Shown piece by piece: positions 45,524 through 63,989 of a DNA stretch of 64,000 bases. The notes under the pieces were generated by a model, which did not search any database, was not told the DNA's origin, and worked only from the letters and a program-made list of their open reading frames with translations. Positions within the stretch are counted from its first letter, which is position 1. Every line of letters begins with the position of its first letter. The DNA is from a virus, in IMG/VR virus record IMGVR_UViG_3300044641_010298, positions 40,213 to 104,212 of that record; one strand, given 5' to 3'. The position numbers and the translations under genes are program-made.

Positions 45524-45576
45524 GTTGCTCCTCCCTACCTGATCATAGTACCACAGCGGGTCGCGGTGACACGCGG

Positions 45577-46365
45577 CTACGGGTTCTTTGGATCCCAGCG
45601 CCTCTGCTCGGGGATCGACTCGGTGTACAGCCGCACCGCTCGGGCAACATCTGTGTGCCCAGCCGACTCTGCCAGCCGCGCGATGGCGTTGCCCTCTCTC
45701 TCTATGATGTCGTTCATCATCTGTGACACCTGGCTGATGTCCTCTGGCATCGTGTTATAGACATCCCTGAGGTAATCAGCTGACACCTGGTAGGCATCGT
45801 CTGTCTTGTCGAGGAAGTCGATTGTGCTGAGGCCGTAGCCGCCCCACTTGATCATCTTGAAGGCTCCCTCGATGACAGTGCCGGCGCGGATCTCCACCAT
45901 GTCCATGAGCGCGCCGACATAGCCCAGGATTGACATGCCCATGAAGAAGATGGAGATGTGGTAGGCGGTCTCGTAGGCTTCTAGCACGGTGGCTCGCTGC
46001 GCCGGGTCCAGCCTCTCCTGCTGCGCGAGCGCATCCTCGTACCTCTTCTTCGCCAGCGAGAACTGGACGACAGAGGTGAGCAGCGCTGTTGTGTCAAATA
46101 TGAACCCAGTGTACCTCAGGTTCCCCTGGATGAAGTTGGTGACGAAGCCGAACAGGTCGTTGATCGCGCTGATCGACTGGAGGCTGTCCTCCATGTCTTG
46201 AGTGTCTAGCATCTGCAGCACATCAGCGTGAGAGGCTGCGACCGTGGCTGCTGGGTTCTTGTGTGCTAGCCGCCCGGTGTCTGGCTCGAAGGTCCCGAGC
46301 TCAGCCTCTCTCAGCAGCTCTCTCACCGCCTCTCGAAGCAGGCGGCCCTGTGTCGTCACGCTCAT
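45577..46365 (-). CDS. leader-motif protein with hydrophobic segments
   Basis: 262 aa; 'RLLREAVRELLRE'; GATATGTAG upstream. Confidence 0.65.
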   Translation of the reverse strand: MSVTTQGRLLREAVRELLREAELGTFEPDTGRLAHKNPAATVAASHADVLQMLDTQDMEDSLQSISAINDLFGFVTNFIQGNLRYTGFIFDTTALLTSVVQFSLAKKRYEDALAQQERLDPAQRATVLEAYETAYHISIFFMGMSILGYVGALMDMVEIRAGTVIEGAFKMIKWGGYGLSTIDFLDKTDDAYQVSADYLRDVYNTMPEDISQVSQMMNDIIEREGNAIARLAESAGHTDVARAVRLYTESIPEQRRWDPKNP

Positions 46366-46403
46366 CGTGTAGCCCCATGTTGAGGCTACATATCACCCGC
46401 CGA

Positions 46404-46727
46404 TCAGCTGTGGACCAGGGCCTTGCACATCCGGGCGATCGCCACCCGACCACCGCGGCCGATCAGCAGGTCCGGGTCGTGCCCCTCGGTCACGGACAGG
46501 GTGGCCTCGGGGACACCGTGGCCGACGGGCTTCGGCATCCGGGGGAGGAGCCCGTTCCAGTTCACCTTGAACCGGGTCGGGTACCGGGGATCCATGCGGT
46601 CGGTGGCCACGAACTTGTGCTCCTGGCCTTCGGGGCCGACCGCGATCCCGCTGACCGCGGTGGTGCCCAGGGGGGAGACCGTGACGGAGGTGATCTTGAA
46701 GGTCCAGCGGAGGTTGGCGGTGGCCAT
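46404..46727 (-). CDS. cassette protein family A, paralog of 57596..57928
   Basis: shares 'HKFVATDRMDPRYPTRFKVNWNGL.PRMPKPVGHGV'. Confidence 0.85.
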   Translation of the reverse strand: MATANLRWTFKITSVTVSPLGTTAVSGIAVGPEGQEHKFVATDRMDPRYPTRFKVNWNGLLPRMPKPVGHGVPEATLSVTEGHDPDLLIGRGGRVAIARMCKALVHS

Positions 46728-46796
46728 GTTGTCGTCCTTGGTTTGGGGTCCGTTAGCTCAGACATCATACCATTCAACGCCTGAGGCGCACGGGCC

Positions 46797-46916
46797 TCAG
46801 TTGAGGCAGTTGATCAGCGGGCAGATCCCGGAGAGGTAGACGAGGGCCGCGACATTGGCGACGAAGAGGGACCCAGCGATCGAGACGGTGCCCCAGATGA
46901 CGGTGTCGGTGGTCAT
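46797..46916 (-). CDS. 39-aa membrane peptide
   Basis: MTTDTVIWGTVSIAGSLFVANVAALVYLSGICPLINCLN; AAGGAGG SD. Confidence 0.65.
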   Translation of the reverse strand: MTTDTVIWGTVSIAGSLFVANVAALVYLSGICPLINCLN

Positions 46917-46933
46917 TTGATTCCTCCTTCCTG

Positions 46934-46952
46934 GGCGGTGTCCATCACCGCC
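46934..46952 (-). promoter_or_regulatory. AUGGA-loop leader hairpin (copy 1 of 6)
   Basis: GGCGGUG-AUGGA-CACCGCC upstream of SD. Confidence 0.7.
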
Positions 46953-46998
46953 TCCTTGCCAGATCATCATACCATTCAGCGGTCAGCCCGCACGGGCT

Positions 46999-47208
46999 TC
47001 AGTGGTTGGCGATCCGGTTCGCCGCGGTCCGGTCGAGGTCCCAGCCCTTCTGCTGGACCGTCTGGTGGCTCGTGTCGACCAGGTCCTTCACCTCACCGCC
47101 CACCGTCCGGACAGTGAAGTTGCGGCCCGCAACCTCGATCACCTCAGCCGCCATCCACTCACCTCGGATCCGAACCACCAGGCTCTCACCAATCAGGGGA
47201 TTGACCAT
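46999..47208 (-). CDS. small SH3/Tudor-like cassette protein
   Basis: 69 aa; AAGGAGG SD; 'GESLVVRIRGEWMAAEV'. Confidence 0.7.
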   Translation of the reverse strand: MVNPLIGESLVVRIRGEWMAAEVIEVAGRNFTVRTVGGEVKDLVDTSHQTVQQKGWDLDRTAANRIANH

Positions 47209-47261
47209 GTTGCCTCCTTGTGATCCTATTCTACCACCGCGACCCTGCCCCGCACGGGCCG

Positions 47262-47543
47262 TCAGCCGACCATGAAGGCCGCCATCGGGACCCGCAGCGG
47301 GCGGCAGGCCGTCACCTCGGCCACCCAGGCCTCGTGCTTCGCCTCGGCCTCCGCCTCGAGCCGGGCCCGCTCACGCCACTCATCCTCGAGGTCCCGGGTC
47401 GCCGCCTCCCAGCCCTCCGCCGTGTCGTCCTCCGGGCGGTACCACCGCGGCTTGATGTTGTGGACCGCCTTGAAGGCGTCGACGAAGTTGTAGAAGGCCT
47501 CGACCTGGGCGTGGGTGGCGAAGGAGGCGGTGTTGATGGCCAT
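47262..47543 (-). CDS. cassette hypothetical protein
   Basis: 93 aa; 'DAFKAVHNIKPR'; own promoter. Confidence 0.75.
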   Translation of the reverse strand: MAINTASFATHAQVEAFYNFVDAFKAVHNIKPRWYRPEDDTAEGWEAATRDLEDEWRERARLEAEAEAKHEAWVAEVTACRPLRVPMAAFMVG

Positions 47544-47611
47544 GTTTGACTCCGTTCTCTGAGGTTGCCTAGCTCTGTTATTCTACCAACGGGTCCCAGG
47601 GACGCACGGGC

Positions 47612-47824
47612 CTACGTGAATCTTGAGCGGCGCCTTGCATCGATGTAGGCATCACCGGAGTCTTCAGCATCGCCAAACATTGGCTGAAACCGCTTGCTGT
47701 AGTGAGATCGGGTCGCTGTCTCGTCTTCCTCAGGCTCCCGCCAGGTCTCAGGGTCTTGATCGGGATCAGGCTTTCGTAGCTCTTCTCTGATGATGTGTCG
47801 AAGCTGGCGCTCGGTGATCCTCAC
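47612..47824 (-). CDS. leader-motif protein (MRITERQLRHIIREEL)
   Basis: 70 aa; GATATGTAG upstream. Confidence 0.75.
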   Translation of the reverse strand: MRITERQLRHIIREELRKPDPDQDPETWREPEEDETATRSHYSKRFQPMFGDAEDSGDAYIDARRRSRFT

Positions 47825-47920
47825 ATGTGCCCCTAGATGGGTCTACATATCGCCCTGGGCCAACAGCGACAACATCGCACAGACACAAGTCAGGCCCCAG
47901 TGACGGGGCCCGAGGTGGTG

Positions 47921-48301
47921 TTAGCGCGAGCGCTTGATTTGCAAGCCGTGCGGAACTCTTCCCGCCTCTATGCGGCTCTGGATCTCACCGGCTGGTAGAT
48001 CCAAGAATTCATCCGGATCGTCGCCGTACTCGTACTCATCCTCGTCTGGCTCATCGAGGTCGAGATTTGAAAACATGTCATCAAACTTCTTGCCAAAGTC
48101 AGGGTCAGTGAGCTTGGGTCGCCTGAACATTGTGGGCTCTCTCATCTTGCGGGCGGTCTCTGCACCCGGGCCAGAGAAGTCATCCATCCCAGACTCCTCG
48201 TAATCGCCTGTCTCTGGGTTCTTGCGGAATGTAACGCCCTTCCTCATCTCATTCAGCTCCTCGCGGACTATCCGGCGAAGCTGGCCCTCAGTGATCCTCA
48301 T
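47921..48301 (-). CDS. leader-motif protein (MRITEGQLRRIVREEL)
   Basis: 126 aa, acidic; GATATGTAG upstream. Confidence 0.8.
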   Translation of the reverse strand: MRITEGQLRRIVREELNEMRKGVTFRKNPETGDYEESGMDDFSGPGAETARKMREPTMFRRPKLTDPDFGKKFDDMFSNLDLDEPDEDEYEYGDDPDEFLDLPAGEIQSRIEAGRVPHGLQIKRSR

Positions 48302-48459
48302 GATGTGCCTCCTGTGATTCTACATATCGCCCCGCTCACCCAGTGCAGGATCAATGTTGCGCAGCGCCAGATCGCGCCCCTTGCATCAGGATCTCGGCGC
48401 CGTGATGCACATCGGGCGCCCCCAGACCGCATCTCCTGCAGCCTGTGGCGCCCTAGTGA

Positions 48460-48777
48460 TTAAGCCTTTGAACGCTTCCAGGCCATGTAGGCTGCCCTTC
48501 CCTCTTCAGCTGATCCGAAGTCCTGTCCGTGAGAAGGATGCGAAGATGGGAACTTGAGGCCGTAACGGAACTCATAATCAGCCTCTGACTCACCGGGACC
48601 GTCGTCGTCAACTCCGTAGTTCATCTCAGCGCTGCGGTCGTAGTCATATCCGCTGCTGTACCCGCCGCCGTAATAGCCGCTACCACCGTATTTGCTCCCG
48701 CCGCGGCGGTAGGTCTCTGTCATCCTGCTGATCTCTTCCTTGATGATCTTTCTCAACTGCGATGCTGTGATTCTCAT
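48460..48777 (-). CDS. leader-motif protein (MRITASQLRKIIKEEI), Gly/Tyr-rich
   Basis: 105 aa; GATAAGTAC upstream. Confidence 0.8.
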   Translation of the reverse strand: MRITASQLRKIIKEEISRMTETYRRGGSKYGGSGYYGGGYSSGYDYDRSAEMNYGVDDDGPGESEADYEFRYGLKFPSSHPSHGQDFGSAEEGRAAYMAWKRSKA

Positions 48778-48894
48778 GTGATCCTCTTGGTGTCTGTACT
48801 TATCACCATCCGTAGAACTTTAGCAGCGTTGTGAACACAACATTCCAGAACAGGATCAGCGTTGCCTTCAACAGGGTATCGAGGACCCAGAGCT

Positions 48895-49110
48895 CTACAG
48901 CCTGCCGTGTGATTCGAGCATGGTCACCACCTCGGGCGGTAGCTCCTCCTTCAGGATGCTCTGTGTCCCCACGCGGCCGTCCTTCGTCTTGTAGCCGATC
49001 TGCCATCCGTGCCTCACCTTCTGCTCTACCTCTAGCTCTGTCCCCTTGGGCCACTCAGTGCCGAAGCGGGTCGTGTACTTCTGCTTGAGAGTTACAACTT
49101 CACCAACCAT
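48895..49110 (-). CDS. SH3-like hypothetical protein
   Basis: 71 aa; AAGGAGG SD. Confidence 0.7.
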   Translation of the reverse strand: MVGEVVTLKQKYTTRFGTEWPKGTELEVEQKVRHGWQIGYKTKDGRVGTQSILKEELPPEVVTMLESHGRL

Positions 49111-49120
49111 TCTCTCCTCC

Positions 49121-49447
49121 TTAGCCTAGCGCCCAGCAGAGCGCAGCGAAAGCGATTGTGAATCCGATCTCCATCACCACCCGGGCCACATCTCTCGCCA
49201 GCGGCGGCGGCATCACCAGGAGCGACAAGCCCACCAGCCCGAGGGCAGCGGAGTACATGATCACATTGGCGATCAGGAACGCCGTCCCCCAGCCCCCAGC
49301 GATCAGGAGCACCGTGAGCAGGGACCAGCACCCGCGGAGCATGAGCGCCCAGGTTGGGTCATTCGCTCGCAGCGCCCGCCACATGTCCCAGATGGTCAGG
49401 GCGCCCCAGAGAATTGCACCGATCGATGGCATAGAACATCCTAACAC
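49121..49447 (-). CDS. multi-pass membrane protein
   Basis: several hydrophobic helices; start may be 49432. Confidence 0.6.
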   Translation of the reverse strand: MLGCSMPSIGAILWGALTIWDMWRALRANDPTWALMLRGCWSLLTVLLIAGGWGTAFLIANVIMYSAALGLVGLSLLVMPPPLARDVARVVMEIGFTIAFAALCWALG

Positions 49448-49465
49448 CCAGTGGGTGCTTGTGTA

Positions 49466-49606
49466 TCAGGTTCGAGAGATCTGGGAACAGACCACCAGCA
49501 TCACGACCCAAGCGACCATCAGGCCCAGGAGCCAGGCGGGGCCGTCGGACCAGGCGATGTGATCGACGGCCATGAGCTGGTGGAAACCCGAGATGACGTT
49601 GTCCAT
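49466..49606 (-). CDS. 46-aa membrane peptide
   Basis: MDNVISGFHQ...WLLGLMVAWVVMLVVCSQISRT; GGAGG SD and cassette promoter. Confidence 0.6.
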   Translation of the reverse strand: MDNVISGFHQLMAVDHIAWSDGPAWLLGLMVAWVVMLVVCSQISRT

Positions 49607-49658
49607 TCTTCCCTCCGTGGATCTATTATAACACGTGACCAAGATCCTGCACGGGTCT

Positions 49659-50111
49659 CTACCCAGCGTCCTCCCAGTCCTTGATCCGCTGCCAGAGGTC
49701 GAAGAGCCGCTTCACATCGGCGAGGGGCAGGGAGGTGAGTCCCTCGCTGAACTTGAGCGAGAGCTCGTCCATGTCCACCGTCACATCACCGCCACCCATG
49801 TTCACCGTGATGCTCCGGATCGGCTGGAAGGGGACGATGCAGCCCGAGGGGCTGACGGGACGGACAGCCGGCGTGCCGTCAGCAGTGGTCATGCCCCTGT
49901 CAGCCATCAGGACCTCGACGGCCTCCTTCGCCTCCTTCAGGCCGACGCCGGGCCGGTCCTTGCCGCTGAAAGGATCGATCGTTCGGTGGCGAGAGGCGTC
50001 GCGGACCACCTTGATCGCGTTGATCTTGTTGGCGTAGCCGCCGCCCGTCTTGTCGTCCAGGAGCGTCTTCACCTGGCTCATCTCTTCCGCGGTCAGCATG
50101 ATCTTGATCAT
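49659..50111 (-). CDS. ribosomal protein bL12 (L7/L12) CTD-like domain protein
   Basis: 'NKINAIKVVR' and 'GLKEAKEAVE' match L7/L12 C-terminal motifs, separated by an insertion. Confidence 0.7.
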   Translation of the reverse strand: MIKIMLTAEEMSQVKTLLDDKTGGGYANKINAIKVVRDASRHRTIDPFSGKDRPGVGLKEAKEAVEVLMADRGMTTADGTPAVRPVSPSGCIVPFQPIRSITVNMGGGDVTVDMDELSLKFSEGLTSLPLADVKRLFDLWQRIKDWEDAG

Positions 50112-50128
50112 CTTTCCTCTCCGTGGTT

Positions 50129-50467
50129 CTATTCTACCAGGACCCCGCGCTCTCGCAGGAGCTTCACAGCTGCGGTGTGCCCGTGAGCCGTGAGGATCTC
50201 GATCGCTTTCGCCTCAGCGGTGGGCTCGTCATCGGTGTCAGCGAGGATGTGACCCAGCTCGTGAGCCTCAATCGCCAGCAGGTGGTCGGGAGTGCACCAT
50301 CCCTGGCTGGCGATGCGCCCATCGATCACAGCGACTGGGTACTCCGTCCCGCGGATCGCATAGCCGTGATTCTGATCAGAGAGCCGCTCGACCACCGTGC
50401 CTTCATCTCGGTCCTCAACCTCGACGACCAGCACATTGCTTGCCATGTCGGACATCCTGAACTTCAT
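50129..50467 (-). CDS. HExxH metallopeptidase-like protein
   Basis: 'AIEAHELGHI...E..AE'. Confidence 0.6.
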   Translation of the reverse strand: MKFRMSDMASNVLVVEVEDRDEGTVVERLSDQNHGYAIRGTEYPVAVIDGRIASQGWCTPDHLLAIEAHELGHILADTDDEPTAEAKAIEILTAHGHTAAVKLLRERGVLVE

Positions 50468-50493
50468 CTCGCCTCCCTTCTACATCTATCGTA

Positions 50494-50913
50494 TCACTTC
50501 GCATGCCCGTCACACAGCGTGCGGACCCAGCCTCCGCCGCGGGGCTTCCCAGGTGCACCACAGATCTCACAGGTGCGGAGCGCAAGCGATTCAGCGAGAG
50601 CGATTGCACCGTCGATGTAGTCGTCGCTATTGCTCACATAGAATCGCAGCCCGCCCCACTTCTCCTTCACCTGCACCGCGACTGTCTGGTGGCCCTCATC
50701 CCATTCAGCATCAGTGAGGTCCTTAAAGTCGCTCTTCTTCCGCTTCCAGTCCAGGTGGTGCTGGATTGTGTTACACAGCGTGTCGACGATGTCATACCAG
50801 CCGTCGTCATGCTCGAAGCCGAAGCACATCAGTGTCTGGCGGGGATCGCCCCGCCTGTCACAAAAGATCTTCGGGTATCGCTCACACAGTGACTTGTCCT
50901 TCTCCTCAGTCAT
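50494..50913 (-). CDS. phage hypothetical protein with C-terminal Zn ribbon
   Basis: 'GFEHDDGW', 'QVKEKWGGLRFY', 'CEICG...C..H'. Confidence 0.75.
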   Translation of the reverse strand: MTEEKDKSLCERYPKIFCDRRGDPRQTLMCFGFEHDDGWYDIVDTLCNTIQHHLDWKRKKSDFKDLTDAEWDEGHQTVAVQVKEKWGGLRFYVSNSDDYIDGAIALAESLALRTCEICGAPGKPRGGGWVRTLCDGHAK

Positions 50914-51119
50914 TTATTCCTCTCGTTGTGTCTATCGAGCATCGCTTGAATCGCTTCGATCACCACCCGCTGGAATCCCTCTTGATCGTCCGGCTGGAGC
51001 CCAAACGCTGCATAGAACTGGTCAACCTTGTCATCCTCGATCTCGAAGACAAATCGCGACCCGCCACCCTCTTGCGGAGCCTCGCTAATGCTCAGCAGCC
51101 CAGGAATATCACTCATCAT
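50910..51119 (-). CDS. hypothetical protein
   Basis: 69 aa, overlapping start/stop with neighbours. Confidence 0.6.
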   Translation of the reverse strand: MMSDIPGLLSISEAPQEGGGSRFVFEIEDDKVDQFYAAFGLQPDDQEGFQRVVIEAIQAMLDRHNERNK

Positions 51120-51453
51120 TCTTCACCTTTCCAGACGCAGCCAGCTCGGCGTAGCCTGGGTAGTACCCAGTTCCCTCGTGTAGATGCCTGAGCAGATTCT
51201 GGGGCCCGAATCCCTCAGCGTCACAGTGGGCATCCCAGAAGTCCTTGATCTCATCATAGGCTCGCAGCTGGACGGTGCGGAGCCGGAGGATCTCTTGGCT
51301 GAGGCGGGTCACCTCCGACTCAAGCGCAGCGACCTTGCTCGGCTCCGACACCCAGCGAGCGAAATCACGAATGACACCCTTGTGTGATCGAAGCAGGTCC
51401 TCGACATCCTGCTCGTTGATTCTATGCAGCCAGCCTGGCACATCGTTTGACAT
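51109..51453 (-). CDS. hypothetical protein
   Basis: 114 aa, GGAG SD. Confidence 0.6.
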   Translation of the reverse strand: MSNDVPGWLHRINEQDVEDLLRSHKGVIRDFARWVSEPSKVAALESEVTRLSQEILRLRTVQLRAYDEIKDFWDAHCDAEGFGPQNLLRHLHEGTGYYPGYAELAASGKVKNDE

Positions 51454-51461
51454 CGCTCCCC

Positions 51462-51629
51462 CTAGAAGGTGATCACCTGCTCCCAGTCAAATTCCTCGGC
51501 ATCCGTGAGCAGCGCATCAAAGAGGCTCTGCTCAGCGCCGGAATCACCCAGTGCCTCCTGCATCGCCTCGCTTGGTGGCTGGTCAGGCCGCCGCTCGATT
51601 ACAATCTGGCGCGTCCTGGCGCGGTCCAT
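51462..51629 (-). CDS. 55-aa acidic hypothetical protein
   Basis: MDRARTRQIV...EEFDWEQVITF; fills the gap with TGATG coupling. Confidence 0.5.
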   Translation of the reverse strand: MDRARTRQIVIERRPDQPPSEAMQEALGDSGAEQSLFDALLTDAEEFDWEQVITF

Positions 51630-51859
51630 CACTCATCCTCGCCACGCTTCGTGTTGCCTGTCTGGGGCTGGCGCTTCCGGATCACCAGGGTGGCCCGTGG
51701 GCGCTCGCCTGGCTTGAGCTCGGCGTCATCCTTCGGGTAGAAGACCACGAAGGTGCTGTCGCGGAGGTCAACGAGCGCTGGAAGATCGGCTCCGCCGATC
51801 AGGTACTCATCCCCGTTCTTGTCGGTGCGGGGCGTCAAACGGATCTCAAATTGGTTCAT
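51629..51859 (-). CDS. hypothetical protein
   Basis: MNQFEIRL..., AAGGA SD. Confidence 0.6.
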   Translation of the reverse strand: MNQFEIRLTPRTDKNGDEYLIGGADLPALVDLRDSTFVVFYPKDDAELKPGERPRATLVIRKRQPQTGNTKRGEDE

Positions 51860-51872
51860 GGTAACATCCTTT

Positions 51873-52142
51873 CTATGATACATCTTTGTCGTCTGGCTCC
51901 TCGCTCACCGGACCATTCCGGAAAGGGAGGACATTGGGTCGAGGCGGAGCCTCCTCCTCGTCATCATCGTCGTCGTCATCGTACTGCCACCCGTTGGCGA
52001 GCAGCATCGCGATGAAGGTCGCCACCGTCTCCTGATGCATCTTGATGATCCGATCCCCGGTCCGCAGGCCGTAGATCGCGCCAAGGATCGCACCGCTGAT
52101 GAAAGAGAGCGTGACGAGGATGAGGGCGACTGAGGGGTCCAT
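51873..52142 (-). CDS. membrane protein with acidic tract
   Basis: N-terminal TM helix, poly-D/E tract. Confidence 0.6.
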   Translation of the reverse strand: MDPSVALILVTLSFISGAILGAIYGLRTGDRIIKMHQETVATFIAMLLANGWQYDDDDDDDEEEAPPRPNVLPFRNGPVSEEPDDKDVS

Positions 52143-52172
52143 GGCTATATTCTGGTCCAGGGCTGCGGGTTG

Positions 52173-52352
52173 TTAATGCTCGAGCGAGCCGGTCCGCACT
52201 TGGACCAGCGTCCATAGGTCATCCAGCGCCGGGTCCGGGTCCTCCTGTAGGGCAGCTTTAAGCGAGAAGAGGTCGTCGGGTTCCATCTCGTTCAGGAGCC
52301 AGAGGTTGTCTGCGACCTGACGAGGGGTGGGCGGTGCTTCAAGATTGATCAT
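52173..52352 (-). CDS. 59-aa acidic hypothetical protein
   Basis: MINLEAPPTP...; AGGAG SD. Confidence 0.55.
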   Translation of the reverse strand: MINLEAPPTPRQVADNLWLLNEMEPDDLFSLKAALQEDPDPALDDLWTLVQVRTGSLEH

Positions 52353-52360
52353 GTTGACTC

Positions 52361-52414: not shown

Positions 52415-52467
52415 TGTTTGCCTCCTTACCTTGTTATTGTACCAGGTCGCCCACCGCCCGCACGGGC

Positions 52468-57064: not shown

Positions 57065-57285
57065 AGGGCACCAGAGGCCGCGACATCGAAGGCCCGCTGG
57101 CGATCTGCCTCGACCGCAGCCTCGACCGTCTCGCTGCCGTAGGACCGGCGGGCACAGGGGTCGCAGTCGAAGAGGACCGGGGTCCCGTTGACCAGCGCCT
57201 CGAACCCAACGCCGCTGGGCCGGCCGCAGGAATCGCAGCGGGGCTGCGAGGGGCGGGTGACGAAGACCAGGTTGCTGCTGCTCAT
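57058..57285 (-). CDS. Zn-finger cassette protein
   Basis: 'CDSC...CDPC'; GGAGG SD before MSSSN. Confidence 0.6.
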   Translation of the reverse strand: MSSSNLVFVTRPSQPRCDSCGRPSGVGFEALVNGTPVLFDCDPCARRSYGSETVEAAVEADRQRAFDVAASGALW

Positions 57286-57392
57286 CTTACCTCCAAGATC
57301 GTTGTCCACATTCATATTGTAACACAGCGGGTGCCGCCCGCACGGGACGCAGCGTTCATGCCTCGCGCGTCGTTTTGATCGAAGATGGGTGG

Positions 57393-57596
57393 TTATATGG
57401 ACCGCTGCTCCAGGTCAGCATCCAAGGGCAGAAGCTCCTCTGGCCAGCAGGTGAGCGTGACGCCAGGGACGACAGGGTCCACCAGGATGATGAGCCTGTC
57501 ATCATCGCTGTCACAGCCCAGGACCATGGCAAGCCGCCCAGCGTATTCGGGGGTCCACATCTCGGGGATGAGGCGAACGATGTCGCCCGGCCCCAT
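57393..57596 (-). CDS. SH3-like hypothetical protein
   Basis: MGPGDIVRL...; TGATG coupling. Confidence 0.55.
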   Translation of the reverse strand: MGPGDIVRLIPEMWTPEYAGRLAMVLGCDSDDDRLIILVDPVVPGVTLTCWPEELLPLDADLEQRSI

Positions 57597-57928
57597 CAGA
57601 AGGCCCCGTCCTGGACCAGGGCCTTGCACATCCGGGCGATGGCCACTCGGGCCCCTCGACCCATGAACAGGTCCTCATCGACCCCGGCCGTGCAGGCGAG
57701 AACCTCTTCCTTGACCCCGTGCCCGACCGGCTTGGGCATCCGGGGGTGGAGGCCATTCCAGTTGACCTTGAACCGGGTCGGGTACCGAGGGTCCATCCGG
57801 TCAGTCGCCACGAACTTGTGGGTCGTGCCGTCCGGAGCAGTGGCCACCCCGCTCACCGCGATCTGACCGATGGCCGAGCGGCGGATGTCCGTGATCGAGA
57901 AGCTCCAGCGAAGGTTGGCGGTGCTCAT
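57596..57928 (-). CDS. cassette protein family A, paralog of 46404..46727
   Basis: near-identical central segment. Confidence 0.85.
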   Translation of the reverse strand: MSTANLRWSFSITDIRRSAIGQIAVSGVATAPDGTTHKFVATDRMDPRYPTRFKVNWNGLHPRMPKPVGHGVKEEVLACTAGVDEDLFMGRGARVAIARMCKALVQDGAF

Positions 57929-58004
57929 TTCGTTCTCCTTGGTCCGTGGTTCCTTACCTTCCCATCATACCAGGTCGCTGTCCGCCCGCACGGGACTCGT
58001 AAGC

Positions 58005-58157
58005 TCAGGCTCCACGAATGAGTTCGATGCCGAGCGAGATCGAGGCCATGATGCTGATGAGGAAGGCGGTGCAGGCGACCGCGATCACGAGCCAGATCAG
58101 CTCGTCACGGGTCGGGAGGGTCGCGAGAGCGTTCCGGATCTGCCACTTGATGTCCAT
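58005..58157 (-). CDS. 50-aa membrane peptide
   Basis: MDIKWQIRN...LIWLVIAVACTAFLISIMASISLGIELIRGA. Confidence 0.6.
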   Translation of the reverse strand: MDIKWQIRNALATLPTRDELIWLVIAVACTAFLISIMASISLGIELIRGA

Positions 58158-58209
58158 TCTGTCCTCCGTGCTCTGTTATTGTACCATGCTTGCAGCCGCT
58201 CGCACGGGC

Positions 58210-58404
58210 TCAGTCCTTACACTTCTCACAGATGTACAGCTGATTGGCCGGCCAGTTCGCCTCGTAGGTGCCACACCACTTGCAGTCACGGCCCCAGTCC
58301 TTCGCCGACCCGACCATGTTCGCCTGAATGATGCGGGAGGGGCTGTGGGCCGCCTGGCGGCGCTTGGCGGTGGCGGCACGGGGATTGAAGAAGAGCTTGT
58401 CCAT
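58210..58404 (-). CDS. Zn-finger cassette protein
   Basis: 'CKWC...CEKC'. Confidence 0.7.
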   Translation of the reverse strand: MDKLFFNPRAATAKRRQAAHSPSRIIQANMVGSAKDWGRDCKWCGTYEANWPANQLYICEKCKD

Positions 58405-58457
58405 TCTGTCCTCCTTGGCCTGATTATTCTACCATCCGTACCGCCGCCCGCACGAGC

Positions 58458-58694
58458 TCAGTACATTGAGGCCAGGATGTCCATCTCACTGAAGCCGAAG
58501 GGGAACGGCTTGATCTGGTGGCTGAGCTCGGCCATGGCGACCAGGTGGTGCCCGCGGCCGGTGAAGGTGCAGACCACCATGTCGTTCCCGTAGTCGCCCT
58601 CCCACTGCTCGACCTTCAGGCCGAGCTCCTGGGCCAGGCTGAGGAAGCGGGGCAGGGTGTCCTTCGAGATGTTGATGTCGAGGTTCTTGGTCAT
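58458..58694 (-). CDS. cassette hypothetical protein
   Basis: MTKNLDINI...; GGAGG SD. Confidence 0.7.
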   Translation of the reverse strand: MTKNLDINISKDTLPRFLSLAQELGLKVEQWEGDYGNDMVVCTFTGRGHHLVAMAELSHQIKPFPFGFSEMDILASMY

Positions 58695-58706
58695 TCTGTC
58701 CTCCAG

Positions 58707-58725
58707 GGCGGGGTCCATCCCCTCC
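58707..58725 (-). promoter_or_regulatory. AUGGA-loop leader hairpin (copy 3)
   Basis: GGAGGGG-AUGGA-CCCCGCC (one mismatch). Confidence 0.65.
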
Positions 58726-58768
58726 ACCTTGCTTGGATATTGTACCATGCCGCCGGTAAGTCGCACGA

Positions 58769-59050
58769 CTAGGGGGAAACTGCCGTCTTGACCTCCTTCT
58801 TGGTGTAGGGGTGGGTGTACCGGACGATGAGCTCGATCGAGTCTTCATAGGACCATCGGGCATCGACCACCACTGCCTTCAGGTCATGGAGCTGGGTCTG
58901 ACCGGTGGTGGGGTCCTTCAGCTTCCGCTGGATGGTGATGAAACGGTGGACCAGCGGGAGGAAGGCCTGGTCGAGGGCCTTCTGGCGGTAGTCAGCTAAG
59001 AGGTCGTGGGCGGTGGTGGTGAAGGTCTCGAGCTCGTCGGGGGTGATCAT
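58769..59050 (-). CDS. cassette hypothetical protein
   Basis: 93 aa; AAGGAGG SD. Confidence 0.75.
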   Translation of the reverse strand: MITPDELETFTTTAHDLLADYRQKALDQAFLPLVHRFITIQRKLKDPTTGQTQLHDLKAVVVDARWSYEDSIELIVRYTHPYTKKEVKTAVSP

Positions 59051-59099
59051 TCTGTCCTCCTTGCTCCCTTATCATACCATCAGGTGTCGGCCTCGCACG

Positions 59100-59126
59100 A
59101 AACGGCCGCCCCCGAAGGGGCGGCCG
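59100..59126 (-). terminator. UUCG-loop hairpin/terminator
   Basis: CGGCCGCCCC-TTCG-GGGGCGGCCG followed by TTT, abutting the next promoter. Confidence 0.65.
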
Positions 59127-59138
59127 GCCGAGCTCCCA

Positions 59139-59588
59139 TCAGGCAAGGAGGAGGAGGAGCTCGGACTTGTTGAGGTCGGAGTAGCCCTTGAGGCCACGGT
59201 CCTTCGCACGGGCCTTCAGCTGGGGGACCGTCAGGGCGGTGAGGTCCTCGTGCGTCGGGGTCGGGTCCACGACCAGGTCGAGGAGGACCGGCTCGACCGG
59301 GGCCTCGACCTTCACGGTGACCGTGAGGTCGGCGGGGTCGGCCGCCTTCCGGGGCCGCTTGAGGGGCGCCGGGGTCATGTCGAGGCCGGCCTCGCGGACG
59401 GCCTTCTTGGCCGCGTGACCGACCGCGATCCGGGCCCCACGGTCGAGGTCACGGGCCGTGACGTGCATGAGGACCTTCGAGCCCCACTGGAGGCGGGTGG
59501 CGACGAAGGGGACATCGCCGATCGTGCCGACCACGGTGGGGGTGCCATCGACGGAGGTGACGGAGCTGATGGTGATGTTCTTGGCCAT
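59139..59588 (-). CDS. cassette protein family B with C-terminal Rho-N/HeH-like domain
   Basis: 'LQWGSKVLMHVT'; 'LTALTVPQLKARAKDRGLKGYSDLNKSEL'. Confidence 0.85.
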   Translation of the reverse strand: MAKNITISSVTSVDGTPTVVGTIGDVPFVATRLQWGSKVLMHVTARDLDRGARIAVGHAAKKAVREAGLDMTPAPLKRPRKAADPADLTVTVKVEAPVEPVLLDLVVDPTPTHEDLTALTVPQLKARAKDRGLKGYSDLNKSELLLLLA

Positions 59589-59657
59589 TTGTTCTTTCCT
59601 TGGTTGGTGGTGGGTGGCTTGATCATTATACCAGGTCAGCGGCATCCCGCACGGGAC

Positions 59658-59810
59658 CTATTCGGCGGCCAGGTCCTGGGCGGTCTCGAGGAGGCTGTCG
59701 ATCGTCTCGAGGTCGAGGCCGGACCAGAGGCCTCGGCTGATCAGGGTCGCCGTGTCCGCCCCGCCCTTGATTGCCGCCGCCGCCTGATCGATGAAGTCGT
59801 GATGAGCCAT
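59658..59810 (-). CDS. 50-aa cassette protein family C
   Basis: MAHHDFIDQ...ISRGLWSGLDLETIDSLL. Confidence 0.75.
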   Translation of the reverse strand: MAHHDFIDQAAAAIKGGADTATLISRGLWSGLDLETIDSLLETAQDLAAE

Positions 59811-59864
59811 TCTGTCCTCCTTACTCTGTTATTCTACCACCACTCTGTCTGCCCGCACGAACCC

Positions 59865-60038
59865 TCAGTACCCCCGGTGCGTGATCCGCTGGCCGACCAG
59901 GTTGAACACCTGCCCACAGGCGCACCGGGCACCGTCATGGGTGATGGTGAACGACTTGCCCGTCTCCTCGCACGCCACCCGGGTCCGGACCCGCTCCTTG
60001 CCGTTCACCGTGATCGTCACTTGGGTCTTCGTGTGCAT
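59865..60038 (-). CDS. Zn-ribbon-like cassette protein
   Basis: MHTKTQ...'CACGQVFNLVGQ'. Confidence 0.65.
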   Translation of the reverse strand: MHTKTQVTITVNGKERVRTRVACEETGKSFTITHDGARCACGQVFNLVGQRITHRGY

Positions 60039-60053
60039 GCTGCCCTCCTTCTC

Positions 60054-60072
60054 GACGGTGTCCATCACTGTC
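60054..60072 (-). promoter_or_regulatory. AUGGA-loop leader hairpin (copy 4)
   Basis: GACAGUG-AUGGA-CACCGUC (compensatory A-U, one mismatch). Confidence 0.6.
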
Positions 60073-60121
60073 CCCTTGATGATTCAGTTATACCAGGTGG
60101 GGGTCACCGTTGCACGAACCC

Positions 60122-60319
60122 TCAGCCGTTCGCCGGGGCCTCGTAGTTCCGGAGGTTGAACTCGCGGAGGGCGGCGCAGGTCTCCTTGTGGATGCCCCTC
60201 TCCTCGGCGAGCTTGAAGAGGGCGTTCGCGATGTCGGCGGTCTCCTTGGAGTCCAGGCCGTAGTTGACGTAGGCCTGGGTGGTGAGGCCGATGAGCTGAG
60301 CGATCTGGTTGGCGTTCAT
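60122..60319 (-). CDS. cassette hypothetical protein
   Basis: 65 aa; AAGGAGG SD. Confidence 0.75.
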   Translation of the reverse strand: MNANQIAQLIGLTTQAYVNYGLDSKETADIANALFKLAEERGIHKETCAALREFNLRNYEAPANG

Positions 60320-60371
60320 TCTGTCCTCCTTGCTCTGTTATTCTACCAGGTCGTGGGCCGCCCGCACGGGC

Positions 60372-60563
60372 TCAGCGGATCCAGCGAACCTCGACATCCA
60401 CCCACCGGTTGCCGTCCGGGTCGCCCGGGCTCGCCGCGACGATCTTGGCGCTGAGAACCCAGCGCCCCGGGTGCTCGGCCTCGAACTGGGCCTTCGCTGC
60501 GAGGATCGTCTCGCGGATATCGGCCGAGGTCTGGAAGAAGCGGATCTGATTGACGTGGGTCAC
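60372..60563 (-). CDS. cassette hypothetical protein
   Basis: 63 aa; AAGGAGG SD, GTG start. Confidence 0.7.
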   Translation of the reverse strand: MTHVNQIRFFQTSADIRETILAAKAQFEAEHPGRWVLSAKIVAASPGDPDGNRWVDVEVRWIR

Positions 60564-60616
60564 GATTACCTCCTTGCTCAGTTATTCTACCATCCGCTCC
60601 CCAGCCCGCACGAGCC

Positions 60617-60898
60617 TCAGTCGTGGGAGCCACGGCACCGGACCCCGTGGTCGGGGCAGCTGTAGCTGACGATGCAGCAGCACGGGACCTCCTCGGCCTT
60701 CGGGCAGCAGCGGCCACCGCTGATGGTCTCGGTCACCTGGCGTGCGTGGTGGGTCCAGGCGATGGGGGTCGGAGTGCCGCGGCCGAGGGAGGACCGCACC
60801 CGGGTGTTGAAGTCCTCCGGGCTCACTCCGAAGATTCCGGCCGAGGTCTGAAGCGCCTTGTAGTCCGCCCGGTACTGCTCGATCGACTTCGTCTTCAT
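60617..60898 (-). CDS. Cys-rich cassette protein
   Basis: 'CCPKA...CCC...SCPDHG..C.GSHD'; start MKTKS. Confidence 0.7.
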   Translation of the reverse strand: MKTKSIEQYRADYKALQTSAGIFGVSPEDFNTRVRSSLGRGTPTPIAWTHHARQVTETISGGRCCPKAEEVPCCCIVSYSCPDHGVRCRGSHD

Positions 60899-60951
60899 CT
60901 TGCCTCCTAGCTCTGTTATTGTACCACCCACTTGCCAACCCGCACGAGACC

Positions 60952-61092
60952 CTAGAACGGGGCCGTGCCGCTGTCGACCTGGGCCACCCAGGCCCAGAAG
61001 GTCTCGAGCTCCTCCGGGGTGGGGTCCTCGAGCCCCACCACCTCTTCATCATCACCACCGAAGTCGATGTCATCCACGATCAGGTCGCGCAT
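60952..61092 (-). CDS. 46-aa highly acidic peptide
   Basis: MRDLIVDDIDFGGDDEEVVGLEDPTPEELETFWAWVAQVDSGTAPF. Confidence 0.6.
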   Translation of the reverse strand: MRDLIVDDIDFGGDDEEVVGLEDPTPEELETFWAWVAQVDSGTAPF

Positions 61093-61177
61093 CTTGCCTC
61101 CGTAAAGCCATCATACCATCACAGTCGTGGCGCGCACGGGCAGCGCGTCGTGCGGGTGCAGCTCGCCCGGTGTAGGG

Positions 61178-61327
61178 TTAGGGCGGTGGCGGCCCGCTGC
61201 GGAGGCGGTCGACGACGGCCGCGACGACTCGGTAGCTGACGTCGAGCAGAGCTCCGGCAGCGTAGAAGGCGAGGCCGGTCGCCACAGCGGCAGCGACCAG
61301 GGCACAGACGGTGTTGACCAGTGACAT
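61178..61327 (-). CDS. 49-aa membrane peptide
   Basis: MSLVNTVCALVAAAVATGLAFYAAGALLD... Confidence 0.5.
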   Translation of the reverse strand: MSLVNTVCALVAAAVATGLAFYAAGALLDVSYRVVAAVVDRLRSGPPPP

Positions 61328-61328
61328 G

Positions 61329-61622
61329 TCAGCCCTCGTATCCGGCCGCGACGCAGCCGTTGATCCACTCGAAGAACATCTTCTGGCCGCTGATCCGGCT
61401 CACCTCATCACCGAGCTCGAGCCACCAGTCCAGGGGATTCGGGTGGTTGTAGTCGTTCGGGATCCCGGTCCCCTCGTGGATGATGCAGACCAGGGAGCCC
61501 TTCCGGCTCCAGCCGCCCGGGTCCTGCCCACCGCGGAAGACCATCTTGTTCACGTCCAGGTCCAGGCCCAGCTCCTTGCCGGCGATCTTGAGGGCGTGTT
61601 TCGTGGCGACGTAGGGGCTCAT
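61329..61622 (-). CDS. cassette hypothetical protein
   Basis: 97 aa; 'DPGGWS', 'FFEWIN'. Confidence 0.75.
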   Translation of the reverse strand: MSPYVATKHALKIAGKELGLDLDVNKMVFRGGQDPGGWSRKGSLVCIIHEGTGIPNDYNHPNPLDWWLELGDEVSRISGQKMFFEWINGCVAAGYEG

Positions 61623-61752
61623 TCCTTTCCTCCTTGCCTCGTTATTCTACCATGTGCTGGGCGCTGCGCACGGGCGCAGGATGCTGGGCGCTCGATAACC
61701 TGGGCGCAAGATGAGCGCTCGACAGCGAGCGCCCACCCCGGACCCGGAGGTC

Positions 61753-62079
61753 TCAGGCCTCGAGCTCGACCTCGAAGACCACCTCGGACAGGGCCACCGG
61801 CTCGGAAGGGGCGGCCTCGGAGGCCTCGACCTTGGTCTTCCGGGGGCGCTTGAGGGGGGCCGGGGTGAGGTCGATGCCCTGGGCACGGACGGCCTTCTTG
61901 GCCGCATGTCCGATCGAGATTCGGGTGCCCCGATCGAAGTCACCACCGGTCACGTGCATGAGGACCTTGCCGCCCCACTGGAGCTGGGAGGCCTGGAAGC
62001 TCTGCTCACCGACCGTGCCGAAGACCACCGCCTTGCCGTCCACCACCGTCACGTCAGAGATCTTGATGTCCTTGGCCAT
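61753..62079 (-). CDS. cassette protein family B
   Basis: 'LQWGGKVLMHVTGGDFDRGTRISIGHAAKK'. Confidence 0.85.
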   Translation of the reverse strand: MAKDIKISDVTVVDGKAVVFGTVGEQSFQASQLQWGGKVLMHVTGGDFDRGTRISIGHAAKKAVRAQGIDLTPAPLKRPRKTKVEASEAAPSEPVALSEVVFEVELEA

Positions 62080-62149
62080 TTGATTTCCCCTTGATTGTTG
62101 CCGTGATTGGCTTGGTTATTGTACCAGGTTCCCCGTCATTCGCACGGGA

Positions 62150-62377
62150 TCAGCGTTCGTATTCCTTGTACCGGCGCTGGATCTCAGCCACCTCTTTGCG
62201 GACGATTCGTGCGAGGGCCTCGCGGGCGTTCTGATCGTGCGACAGGGTGAAGGCGAGGCACTTGACCATCGTCTGGGCGACGACCGTCGAGCTCGCACCG
62301 GCGAAGCTGTCACCTTCGAGATCCATGTCGCACCAATCCACGAGGATGTCAGCGAGCTGAGCCATATCCGTGTCCAT
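62150..62377 (-). CDS. cassette hypothetical protein
   Basis: MDTDMAQL...; alternative in-frame start 62404 in hairpin loop. Confidence 0.65.
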   Translation of the reverse strand: MDTDMAQLADILVDWCDMDLEGDSFAGASSTVVAQTMVKCLAFTLSHDQNAREALARIVRKEVAEIQRRYKEYER

Positions 62378-62392
62378 GATTCCTTCCTCCAG

Positions 62393-62411
62393 GGCGGGGT
62401 CCATCCCCGCT
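62393..62411 (-). promoter_or_regulatory. AUGGA-loop leader hairpin (copy 5)
   Basis: GCGGGG-AUGGA-CCCCGC. Confidence 0.7.
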
Positions 62412-62456
62412 GCCTTGCTTGATCATTGTATCACTGTATCAGTCCGTCGCACGGGA

Positions 62457-62696
62457 TCACCAGATGACGAGCACCGCGATCTTGCCGTTCTCATCGTCCT
62501 GGTTGAACTCCGGCTCCTTGTCGGAGGGTTCCCAGTCATCCAGCTCGTCATCAGTCAGATCCGAGGTGTCATCGGACCAGGTGCCCCGAGAGACCTGGAC
62601 GATGTCCTCGGGATCACCCCGCTCCGGGTCCAGGACCTGGACCTTCATGTCCTGGGGGAGAGCCTGGAGCTCCTTGATCAGTTCCGAAACAGTCAT
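62457..62696 (-). CDS. acidic cassette protein (MTVxELIxxLxxxPxD type)
   Basis: 79 aa; AAGGAGG SD. Confidence 0.75.
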   Translation of the reverse strand: MTVSELIKELQALPQDMKVQVLDPERGDPEDIVQVSRGTWSDDTSDLTDDELDDWEPSDKEPEFNQDDENGKIAVLVIW

Positions 62697-62747
62697 GATT
62701 GCCTCCTTGCTTGATCATTGTATCACCCGCCCAGCCTGGCGCACGGG

Positions 62748-63098
62748 TCAGAGGCGGCCCTTGTGGTTCGTTCCGATCGAGCCGCTCTCGCCCACCTTCC
62801 TGAACTTCAGATTGCCCATGTAGCTGTTGCTGTTGGACATCTGACAGGCCTTACCCACGTTCTGTCCGCTGTTGGATCGCCACGCCTTCACATAGGCAGC
62901 TCGATCCTTCTCAGATCCGAAGGCGAGGACGGTGACGCCCACACCCTTTCCGTCACCGGCCGCGACCCCGGCATAAGGGACCGCCGTCTCGGTGCCCAGC
63001 TCCTCCACGCAGTCTGGGCACTCGTTGATCCGCCCGCCGATCGAGCGCTTCTGAGGAGAGGTGTGATCGAACGAGACCCCGCAGTGCTTGCAGTCCAT
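62748..63098 (-). CDS. Zn-ribbon cassette protein
   Basis: 'MDCKHCG...ECPDC'; AGGAGG SD. Confidence 0.75.
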   Translation of the reverse strand: MDCKHCGVSFDHTSPQKRSIGGRINECPDCVEELGTETAVPYAGVAAGDGKGVGVTVLAFGSEKDRAAYVKAWRSNSGQNVGKACQMSNSNSYMGNLKFRKVGESGSIGTNHKGRL

Positions 63099-63120
63099 TA
63101 TGCCTCCTGCGCTTATTGTA

Positions 63121-63330
63121 TCAGGTGTTGTCAGTGTCGCACGCCCCGCGGCAAGCCTTCCGGCTCGCTTCCCGCCGCTTGTCCGGTCGGACGCTGTGCT
63201 CACCCCGCCAGTCAGCCGGGGTGCCGCCGGCTGCGAAGTGGGCAGCTCGATCGAATCCCCGAAGGAGGCGGAGGGTGTCCAGCCGCTTCAGGGTGGTGGC
63301 CTTCAGGGTGTGGCGATTCGTGTGTGCCAT
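63121..63330 (-). CDS. basic cassette protein
   Basis: 69 aa; 'WRG......DKRREASRKACRG'. Confidence 0.7.
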   Translation of the reverse strand: MAHTNRHTLKATTLKRLDTLRLLRGFDRAAHFAAGGTPADWRGEHSVRPDKRREASRKACRGACDTDNT

Positions 63331-63380
63331 GATTCCTCCTTGCTCCTATATTGTATCAGGCTGCGGAGGACCCGCACGGG

Positions 63381-63545
63381 TTAGAACACCGTCTCATCCA
63401 GCGGCAGGGCGACGACCGGGCCTTCCCAGCCGGCCGGGACGTAGATCGCTTCCGCCTCGAGTCCACCGGTGTAGACGCGGCCCTCGAGCGTGGGGGCCTT
63501 CGCGACGTTGAAGAGGGTGGCGAGGAAGAGGATGATGGTGTTCAT
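63381..63545 (-). CDS. 54-aa protein with signal-like N-terminus
   Basis: MNTIILFLATLFNVAKA...; AAGGAG SD. Confidence 0.6.
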   Translation of the reverse strand: MNTIILFLATLFNVAKAPTLEGRVYTGGLEAEAIYVPAGWEGPVVALPLDETVF

Positions 63546-63589
63546 TGATGTCTCCTTGGTTCTGGTCTGGTGGGTGGTGCCTGGTTATT

Positions 63590-63721
63590 CTACTTGGTGG
63601 AACCGGTGACGCACGCGCGATGGTTCGACAGACCGACGCAGGCGGTGGACCCCTTCAGGCTCACAGTGACACCGAGGTAGAGAGCGAGGCCGATCGCGGC
63701 GACAATGATCAGAAGCTTCAT
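63590..63721 (-). CDS. 43-aa membrane peptide
   Basis: MKLLIIVAAIGLALYLGVTVSLKG...; AAGGAGG SD. Confidence 0.55.
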   Translation of the reverse strand: MKLLIIVAAIGLALYLGVTVSLKGSTACVGLSNHRACVTGSTK

Positions 63722-63733
63722 CTTGTCCTCCTT

Positions 63734-63752
63734 GGCGGTGTCCATCACCGCC
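63734..63752 (-). promoter_or_regulatory. AUGGA-loop leader hairpin (copy 6)
   Basis: GGCGGUG-AUGGA-CACCGCC, identical to copy 1. Confidence 0.7.
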
Positions 63753-63803
63753 GCCTTGGTTGGTTACCTGCCCATTGTATCACCGCGCCTGGGCGGCGCA
63801 CGA

Positions 63804-63989
63804 TCAGAACTCGTTTGGCCGCGCGCTCTGGTGCATCTTCTTGAGGATCTCCTGCTCGCGGGCATCGATCTCCGCCTCGCGTCGGACGAAGGCCTCGGTC
63901 GCCTGCTTCAGCCGGCGGGCGGTGAGCCAGAGCATCGAGGTGTAGACACCGGTGATCGCAGCGATCGCAGCGATGGGCCCCATGATCAC
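63804..63989 (-). CDS. membrane-anchored small protein
   Basis: 61 aa; TM helix plus coiled coil; GGAGG SD. Confidence 0.6.
   Translation of the reverse strand: MIMGPIAAIAAITGVYTSMLWLTARRLKQATEAFVRREAEIDAREQEILKKMHQSARPNEF

Follow-up and report, generated by a model that had tools for sequence, protein, structure and literature searches.

The 64,000-nucleotide (nt) stretch analyzed here, referred to as the window, forms the final 64 kb (positions 40,213 to 104,212) of the linear, 104,212-bp IMG/VR virus record IMGVR_UViG_3300044641_010298, for which CheckV gives a completeness of 32%. The last part of the window (45545-64000, minus strand) is an array rich in guanine and cytosine (GC), with approximately 50 small, mostly ORFan genes and 33-34 copies of one promoter, and this array continues past the end of the contig. 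At most junctions between neighboring units, the stop codon of the upstream gene lies directly against the 5′ edge of the next promoter. The explanation that we favor, and that we consider likely to be the correct one, is compaction of the genes against this edge combined with modular exchange mediated by the promoter copies, resembling the exchange described for the promoter-early stem-loops (PeSLs) of T4-type phages.

Each unit of the repeat consists, on the minus strand, of the box CCCGTGCG, 14 variable nt, the extended -10 element TG(G/A)TAnAAT, a short leader with the Shine-Dalgarno (SD) sequence AAGGAGG, and an ATG start codon. The heptamer GCACGGG, the plus-strand form of the motif, occurs 27 times in the window, compared with an expectation of 4.2; the plus strand at 46.7-63.4 kb accounts for 24 of the 27. 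In 56 related sequences, the box and TGn are separated by 14 nt in 252 promoter copies and by 15 nt in another 11. The final six bases of the box are located at the position of the -35 hexamer, with a 17-nt spacer, and are unlike TTGACA. A scan for canonical sigma-70 promoters (TTGACA) detected no promoter copy of the array. Information content rises from approximately 0.09 bit just before the box to 1.23 at its first base and to 1.9-2.0 inside it, and the box is conserved as strongly as the -10 element. Upstream of the box nothing is conserved and an AT-rich UP-like tract is absent; intrinsic terminators number 10 against 9.4 in shuffled sequences. The first-pass annotation of this DNA had likewise seen no room for UP elements or terminators.

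The same annotation, made from the window alone, had reported that the preceding stop codon abuts the promoter element in approximately 25 of 36 junctions. This pattern was borne out: at 24 of the 34 junctions, the distance from the end of the stop to the box is -1 to 3 nt. ORF (open reading frame) calling placed the preceding stop at this distance from the 8-mer at 22 junctions, and two more, at 55960 and 47612, were added by eye. The individual coordinates also agree; for example, GCACGGG occupies 54624-54630 and TCA the next three positions, 54631-54633. Independently of ORF calling, a stop triplet was found at this distance in 24 of 33 promoters, compared with approximately 9% expected from offsets 8-39 (binomial tail approximately 6e-17).

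All promoter copies are located on the minus strand. At two of them the stop lies over the first base of the box, giving a gap of -1: 63774-63804 (box ATCGTGCG, TGA) and 58739-58769 (box GTCGTGCG, TAG). The gap is 0 at 63350-63380 (box CCCGTGCG, TAA) and, with TGA as the stop, at 62717-62747, 55227-55257, 54944-54974, and 54600-54630. A gap of 1 nt follows TGA at 62425-62455 (with an AUGGA-loop hairpin in the leader), 62118-62148, 60340-60370, 58426-58456 (box CTCGTGCG), and 58178-58208; it follows TAA at 52436-52466, which heads a multi-gene unit of 1.9 kb, and TAG at 47580-47610. Copies with a gap of 2 nt were found after TGA at 60584-60614 (box CTCGTGCG), 50131-50161 (box CTCCTGCG), 46966-46996, and 46764-46794, the final copy before the low-GC body of the genome, and after TAG at 59625-59655 and 55927-55957 (box CGCGTGCA). 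The gap is 3 nt after TAG at 60918-60948 (box CTCGTGCG) and 49625-49655 (box CCCGTGCA), the latter heading a 2-kb multi-gene unit, and after TGA at 59831-59861 (box TTCGTGCG) and 47228-47258.

The remaining junctions fall into two main groups. In the first group, the stops are 10, 16, 25, 37, and 46 nt upstream of the box, at 57964-57994 (TGA), 52659-52689 (box CTCGTGCG), 53032-53062 (box CTCGTGCG), 59071-59101 (box TTCGTGCG), and 57316-57346, respectively. The copy with the 46-nt gap heads a multi-gene unit of 1.39 kb. The 37-nt gap contains a GC stem of 10 bp capped by a TTCG loop and represents the clearest PeSL-like stem-loop junction of the array. Folding of the long-gap junctions was no better than that of shuffled sequences, save for this stem at 59079 and perhaps the junction at 61652. 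In the second group, approximately five junctions, the upstream ORF runs through the box and its stop is located in or just ahead of the -10 element (-25 to -33). This is seen at 63115-63145 (box GGCGTGCG), where the stop is just ahead of the -10 element (-25), and at 61110-61140, where the ORF covers the box and the spacer (-30) and the overlap is conserved in relatives. A degenerate promoter copy at 50488-50518 (box GCTGTGTG, TGATACGAT) is likewise overlapped by the upstream ORF. Stops are absent inside the 14-nt spacer because the spacer is GC-rich, so that an ORF entering the promoter continues to the AT-rich -10 element. At 61644-61674, the upstream stop is ambiguous: either the ORF overlaps the promoter to -28, or the stop lies 78 nt upstream and is followed by a GC hairpin. 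The copy at 53513-53543 (box CTCGTGCG) is located downstream of a plus-strand HNH insertion and hence has no abutting ORF.

The same pile-up of stops was found in a related IMG/VR record, IMGVR_UViG_3300042987_004038 (G001, 96.8 kb), and in 183 unique promoters of metagenome contigs. Together with the own record of the window (G000, 104 kb), G001 makes up 201 kb, each of the two assemblies covering approximately 30% of its genome. In the pooled set of 247 unique promoters from 56 contigs, mostly from freshwater metagenomes, the stop triplets at offsets 0 to 5 number 46, 39, 29, 16, 11, and 2, with a background of approximately 5. These offsets form a pile-up against a wall and not a fixed cut. 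At orthologous junctions, the gap between stop and box differs by small indels, being 1, 2, or 3 nt, and in one case 1 versus 20 nt. Packing is also tight in the genome body, where 37 of the 68 co-directional junctions are no longer than 13 nt and many genes overlap. Therefore, the decay of the offsets, the drift of the gap between orthologs, the genome-wide packing, and the ORFs overlapping the box argue for compaction rather than for a precise cut. Two features of the stops themselves were recorded in 72 unique array junctions with gaps of -1 to 3, which are not phylogenetically independent: the base preceding the abutting stop is C in 54 of the 72, compared with 49% C at the third codon positions of array genes, and TGA is the stop in 47.

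Comparison of the window with G001 revealed colinear arrays of 70-93% identity that differ by whole promoter-to-promoter units, with six units specific to the own record, seven specific to G001, and one swap of order. Adjacent high-scoring segment pairs between the two records overlap by 8-54 nt of promoter repeat. The order of the cassettes is combinatorial among the relatives, with more than 50 metagenome contigs included in the comparison: for example, the order 15-23-24-16-29-5 was found in the own record and in contig L106, 15-24-16 in G001, and 15-16-5 in contig L104. Cassette 12 precedes cassette 7 in some contigs and follows cassette 2 in the own record. Additionally, some relatives contain tandem repeats of one cassette family (e.g., "3 3" and "13 13"). 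Judged from these alignments, the promoter-to-promoter units do behave as cassettes that can be present, absent, duplicated, or reordered.

The first-pass annotation had interpreted the precise ends of the ORFs as the product of integron-like capture or trimming of genes at the stop codon. The cassette behavior that it proposed was found; a capture or trimming mechanism was not supported, considering the variable gap, the spread of the crossovers, the ORFs reading through the box, the lack of a hairpin, and the promoter carried by each unit. The crossovers between the own record and G001 were mapped by three-way alignment, in which the promoters on both sides of a unit were compared with the one corresponding promoter of the other genome. 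Approximately 6 of 10 events were mapped to the box and approximately 3 of 10 to the region from the -10 element to the SD. In the box crossovers, one promoter copy agrees with the single promoter in the upstream flank and its stop, and the other copy agrees from the spacer onward. This mapping is soft because spacers diverge fast even at intact junctions.

A test of promoter pairs (269 promoters) was also made for the identity of the spacers. The mean identity is 0.83 at intact junctions and 0.30 for unrelated pairs; it is 0.49 where only the upstream gene is shared and 0.50 where only the downstream gene is shared, both of these classes having mixed distributions. Therefore, the spacer goes now with the upstream gene and now with the downstream gene. 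Among the 107 pairs sharing only the upstream gene, the upstream homology ends at the boundary between stop and box in 65 (class "st"). This result agrees with the expectation that homologs of the cassette ORFs lose similarity at the stop codon. Homology extending across the junctions, which was named beforehand as evidence against cassettes, was not seen where the neighbors differ, and the cassette idea is thus not refuted; the breakpoints, however, are spread over more than one point.

Both the 65 pairs with this boundary and the share of events in the box would also be expected from a site-specific system, in which a dedicated enzyme recognizes the CCCGTGCG box and inserts or excises single genes precisely between the stop and the box. 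Such a system would also account for the very strong conservation of a box that should be superfluous at the -35 position of an extended -10 promoter. We nevertheless regard it as very unlikely, since the distance between stop and box varies from 0 to 4 nt and changes from one ortholog to another, other crossovers map to the -10 element or the leader, ORFs run through the box at approximately five junctions, no box interrupts the multi-gene units of 1.4-2 kb, hairpin covariation or excess folding is lacking at the box, and every cassette has its own promoter. In agreement with this, the recombinase or reverse transcriptase that the first-pass annotation suggested looking for was not detected: profiles for Phage_integrase (PF00589), Resolvase, RVT_1, and RecA had no match in G000 and G001, although the controls gave matches, which is weak evidence given that only approximately 30% of each genome was covered. 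It is correspondingly hard to believe that the CCCGTGCG box, besides its role in the promoter, is recognized by a specialized phage enzyme for cutting and joining DNA immediately behind the stops. If such an enzyme did act on the box, it would mean virus-borne cassette exchange that is functionally parallel to integrons and mechanistically unrelated to them.

Integron cassettes are promoterless units expressed from a common promoter (Pc), with a folded attC end, and their movement needs the tyrosine integrase IntI. The array is similar to integrons in having co-oriented single-gene units with little non-coding DNA, whose presence and order vary between relatives. In contrast to integrons, each unit of the array has its own promoter, attC-like structures were not found, and no match to an integrase was obtained in the 201 kb of the two assemblies.

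The hairpin idea is also central to an explanation at the RNA level, according to which the box and its flanks would form a 3′-end hairpin or a processing site that is required directly after the upstream stop. The sequence CCCGTGCGGG can make a 3-bp stem with a GTGC loop, GG follows the box in approximately 40% of the copies, and C-to-T variants at box positions 1-2 would retain G-U pairs. In contrast, the remaining copies, approximately 60%, are unable to form the stem. Of the six variable stem positions, five have pairing frequencies across the box flanks equal to the shuffled expectation, and the sixth pair is weakly enriched (z = 3.7). The mean folding energy around the box is -9.2 kcal/mol, compared with -8.8 and -8.6 kcal/mol in the controls, and the strict 14-nt phasing to the -10 element indicates a promoter role at the DNA level. 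Based on these data, the RNA-level explanation is extremely improbable. An attC-like hairpin or inverted repeat around the box was likewise not found by covariation or folding, and this candidate was rejected, flank pairing and folding energy being near those of the controls.

Another possible source of the layout is descent. Whole promoter-to-promoter units would be duplicated, the ORFs would then diverge beyond recognition, and the arrangement of stop and box would be copied from an ancestral compact unit. Some duplication is evident in the array, where three paralogous pairs of proteins with 50-71% identity were found, scattered and in non-colinear order, all on the minus strand: 59139-59588 and 53088-53471, 59658-59810 and 52468-52614, and 57596-57928 and 46404-46727. 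The tandem family repeats in relatives and the leaders, which are near-identical in many cassettes, point in the same direction. However, most ORFs of the array have no detectable similarity to one another, and their products range from 30 to 190 amino acids (aa) in length. Moreover, the gap nucleotides vary among the cassettes and change between orthologs, and the layout is therefore maintained and not merely inherited. For these reasons, descent is considered unlikely as the cause of the abutting stops.

According to the favored explanation, compaction with promoter-mediated exchange, each small gene or short group of genes carries its own copy of the rigid promoter. The genome is tightly packed throughout, and DNA without a function would be lost from the interval separating an ORF from the next promoter; the 5′ edge of that promoter, formed by the box, would act as a wall, which would yield a distribution of stops decaying over 0-4 nt. 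Recombination within a phage and between related phages would use the promoter copies as short stretches of homology, and this recombination would add, remove, duplicate, and reorder whole promoter-to-promoter units. Such exchange would also favor ORFs that end before the box, because the end of an ORF overlapping the promoter would be rewritten with each exchange. The genes are co-directional and almost no terminators are present; therefore, transcripts probably read through across the junctions of the array.

Several points weigh against this explanation. The largest share of the mapped crossovers is in the 8-bp box, the shortest conserved segment, which is not predicted by simple homology length. 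The promoter instances in the pooled count of stop offsets and in the pair test are phylogenetically non-independent, and the recombination, the transcript start, and the contact between protein and DNA are all deduced from sequence. Additionally, the late-class motif of the same genome shows no equally sharp pile-up: its distances to the stop are 103, 11, -16, 37, -4, 26, 27, and -1 (n = 8). The late class is looser, and therefore compaction alone is not equally strict throughout the genome. The early array is the tightest promoter class in its own genome, which we attribute to frequent exchange of promoter copies, as this would penalize overlapping ORFs. The motif of the late class, ATA(G/T)(T/G)TA, is likely a late promoter; it was found 23-28 nt ahead of the ATG in several genes of the structural region (upstream of window positions 28303, 39710, and 43579) and at times overlaps the upstream stop codon.

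Equally tight spacing in other promoter classes had been named by the first-pass annotation as a result that would speak against capture. The late class is looser; the early promoters of phage T4 gave a partial parallel, three of five abutting or overlapping the upstream stop and two of five following a terminator. The T4 comparison covers a 24-kb early region and comprises five promoters recognized by eye, the T4 RefSeq record being without promoter features.

The closest known system is that of the PeSLs, mobile regulatory cassettes in hyperplastic regions of the T4-type phages RB49/phi1, T4/PST, and KVP40/nt-1 (Arbiol et al. 2010, PMC2839356; Comeau et al. 2014, PMC4122927). Through recombination between PeSLs, ORFans are lost, gained, or exchanged and mini-circles arise, the crossovers having been mapped between the SD and the -10 element, in the loop, or in the AT-rich part; this cassette mechanism was proposed and partly demonstrated in T4-type phages (PMC2839356, PMC4122927). 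Both the PeSLs and the promoters of the array flank small ORFans in a T4-type myovirus, and in both, hyperplastic regions contain repeated sigma-70-like early promoters lying between small ORFs; the copies in the array have a perfect extended -10 element. In both systems, the endpoints of indels, replacements, and reorderings between close relatives are located inside the modules, and crossovers occur at several places of the module. However, most copies in the array have neither a stem-loop nor a terminator, a strong GC hairpin being found at only one or two junctions (59079 and perhaps 61652). The promoters of the array also differ from PeSLs in having no AT-rich UP region and in containing, at the -35 position, the GC-rich non-consensus box CCCGTGCG in rigid 14-nt phasing. 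Finally, the array is contiguous over at least 18 kb and exceeds the rest of the genome by 20 GC points. Thus, the array is a stem-loop-less variant of the T4-type PeSLs with a non-canonical -35 box, and the class of mechanism is already known.

The sequence of the promoter also suggests how it could be used. The extended -10 element (TGnTAnAAT) appears usable by a host RNA polymerase of the sigma-70 type, which may not need a contact at -35, since TGn is present in every copy. The transcript probably starts at a conserved G approximately 7 nt past the -10 element, followed by a leader of approximately 16 nt with a strong SD. The conservation of the box, together with its variation between lineages, fits a dedicated host or phage DNA-binding factor, for example, a class II-type activator, a sigma-appropriation partner, or a shut-off repressor. 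Variants were found in three metagenome lineages: the box CCCGTGAA (C(C/T)CGTGAA) in L079 and the -10 element TGGTATACT, followed by a conserved AACC, in L031 and L042. In all three, the 14-nt phasing is kept and the stops adjoin the box.

T4 middle promoters (MotA/AsiA) and class II activator promoters are similar to the promoters of the array in combining a good sigma-70 -10 element with a phage-specific box that replaces the -35 element in fixed phase. The MotA box differs in being centered near -30, whereas the box of the array spans approximately -37 to -30 and has another sequence. A search of the genome fragment for MotA_activ (PF09114) gave no match, and the control was likewise without a match. 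One protein encoded in the window, of 73 aa (31758-31979, plus strand), has a Cys-rich N-terminal half and a helix-turn-helix of the sigma-70 region-4 type (PF04545, E = 1.7e-9). Its gene is antisense to the neighboring genes and is conserved in G001 (31790-31888). This region-4-type protein is a candidate regulator that may bind the CCCGTGCG box.

Six leaders of the array contain a 7-bp hairpin, GGCGGnG-ATGGA-CnCCGCC, just before the SD (at 63782, 62433, 58747, 52667, and 46974, with a variant near 60090). The stem varies on both sides between the copies, and the loop and stem hold ATGGAC, mimicking the start of many ORFs of the array.

The array is the hyperplastic early gene block of the phage and probably serves host takeover. 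All its real genes are on the minus strand except for one plus-strand gene for an HNH endonuclease. The array proteins are encoded with a GC content at third codon positions (GC3) of 0.7-0.98, and nearly all have no family assignment. Among 20 array proteins searched against Pfam and PHROG, matches were found solely for the HNH endonuclease and for a Rho_N/SAP-like tail, a motif that ends the 149-aa member of the paralogous pairs (E = 8e-6). The HNH endonuclease ORF (53637-54392, plus strand; Pfam HNH, E = 3.7e-8) occupies a stretch of reduced GC content within the array. The 860-nt stretch around this ORF is mostly missing in G001, and it therefore looks like a homing-endonuclease insertion. 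Another ORFan, of 262 aa (45577-46365, minus strand), is located at the border between the array and the genome body; it is absent from the lake-metagenome contig L089, which has approximately 460 nt in place of approximately 1070 nt, and a locus search in IMG/VR detected no relative of it.

The GC content is 59-66% in the last 19 kb of the record (window 45.5-64 kb), compared with approximately 40% across most of the record. The island is sharp: the mean GC3 is at least 0.71 at 45300-64000, compared with a GC3 of 0.39 and a GC content of approximately 40% in the body (1-45000). The junction between the GC-rich and GC-poor parts was reproduced in three assemblies, namely the own record, G001 (1-21000), and contig L089. 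A chimeric assembly as the source of the GC jump was thus ruled out, G001 and L089 crossing the same junction. No tRNA genes that could account for the split in codon usage were found in the window. Candidate causes of the island are host-like codon usage of the early genes or foreign origin.

In the host-takeover module of phage SPO1 and the pre-early region of phage T5, numerous small early genes with strong promoters of their own are grouped into terminal blocks, which are located in terminal repeats. The array is similar to these blocks in its many small early genes with own promoters. It differs in that a terminal position is only suggested here, by two contigs ending in the array, and in that the evidence for shuffling seen for the array is not part of the descriptions of those blocks.

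The phage itself is T4-type, as seen from a match to the Gp23 capsid family (E = 1.9e-66) and from genes for gp6-like baseplate wedge proteins, and it is an uncultured giant T4-type myovirus of lakes. Its body encodes a homolog of the PrkA/YeaG-type serine kinase (34482-36428, minus strand) and a PhoH-like ATPase (30395-31702, minus strand). The former is 33% identical to the kinase of the Thermus phages TMA and phiYS40 and of several uncultured phages of 0.6 Mb.

A pattern scan of IMG/VR found 20 promoter copies in G001. In the metagenomes of the Joint Genome Institute, the promoter pattern was found in at least 120 stretches; among the matches listed, 54 stretches have at least two copies and most come from freshwater lakes and rivers. 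Searches of 6 kb of the array by megablast and blastn against 50,697 phage records gave no match, and IMG/VR locus searches with single array proteins returned either G001 as the sole match or none.

These results extend promoter-mediated modular shuffling of the PeSL type to giant T4-type phages of fresh water that form a widespread, uncultured lineage. They also suggest that exchangeable gene units need no stem-loop to be delimited and that a promoter consisting of nothing more than the 8-bp box and the extended -10 element suffices. The pile-up of stops is an easily read mark of such arrays at the sequence level, and whether it decays or sits at a fixed offset separates compaction with homology-driven exchange from site-specific capture.

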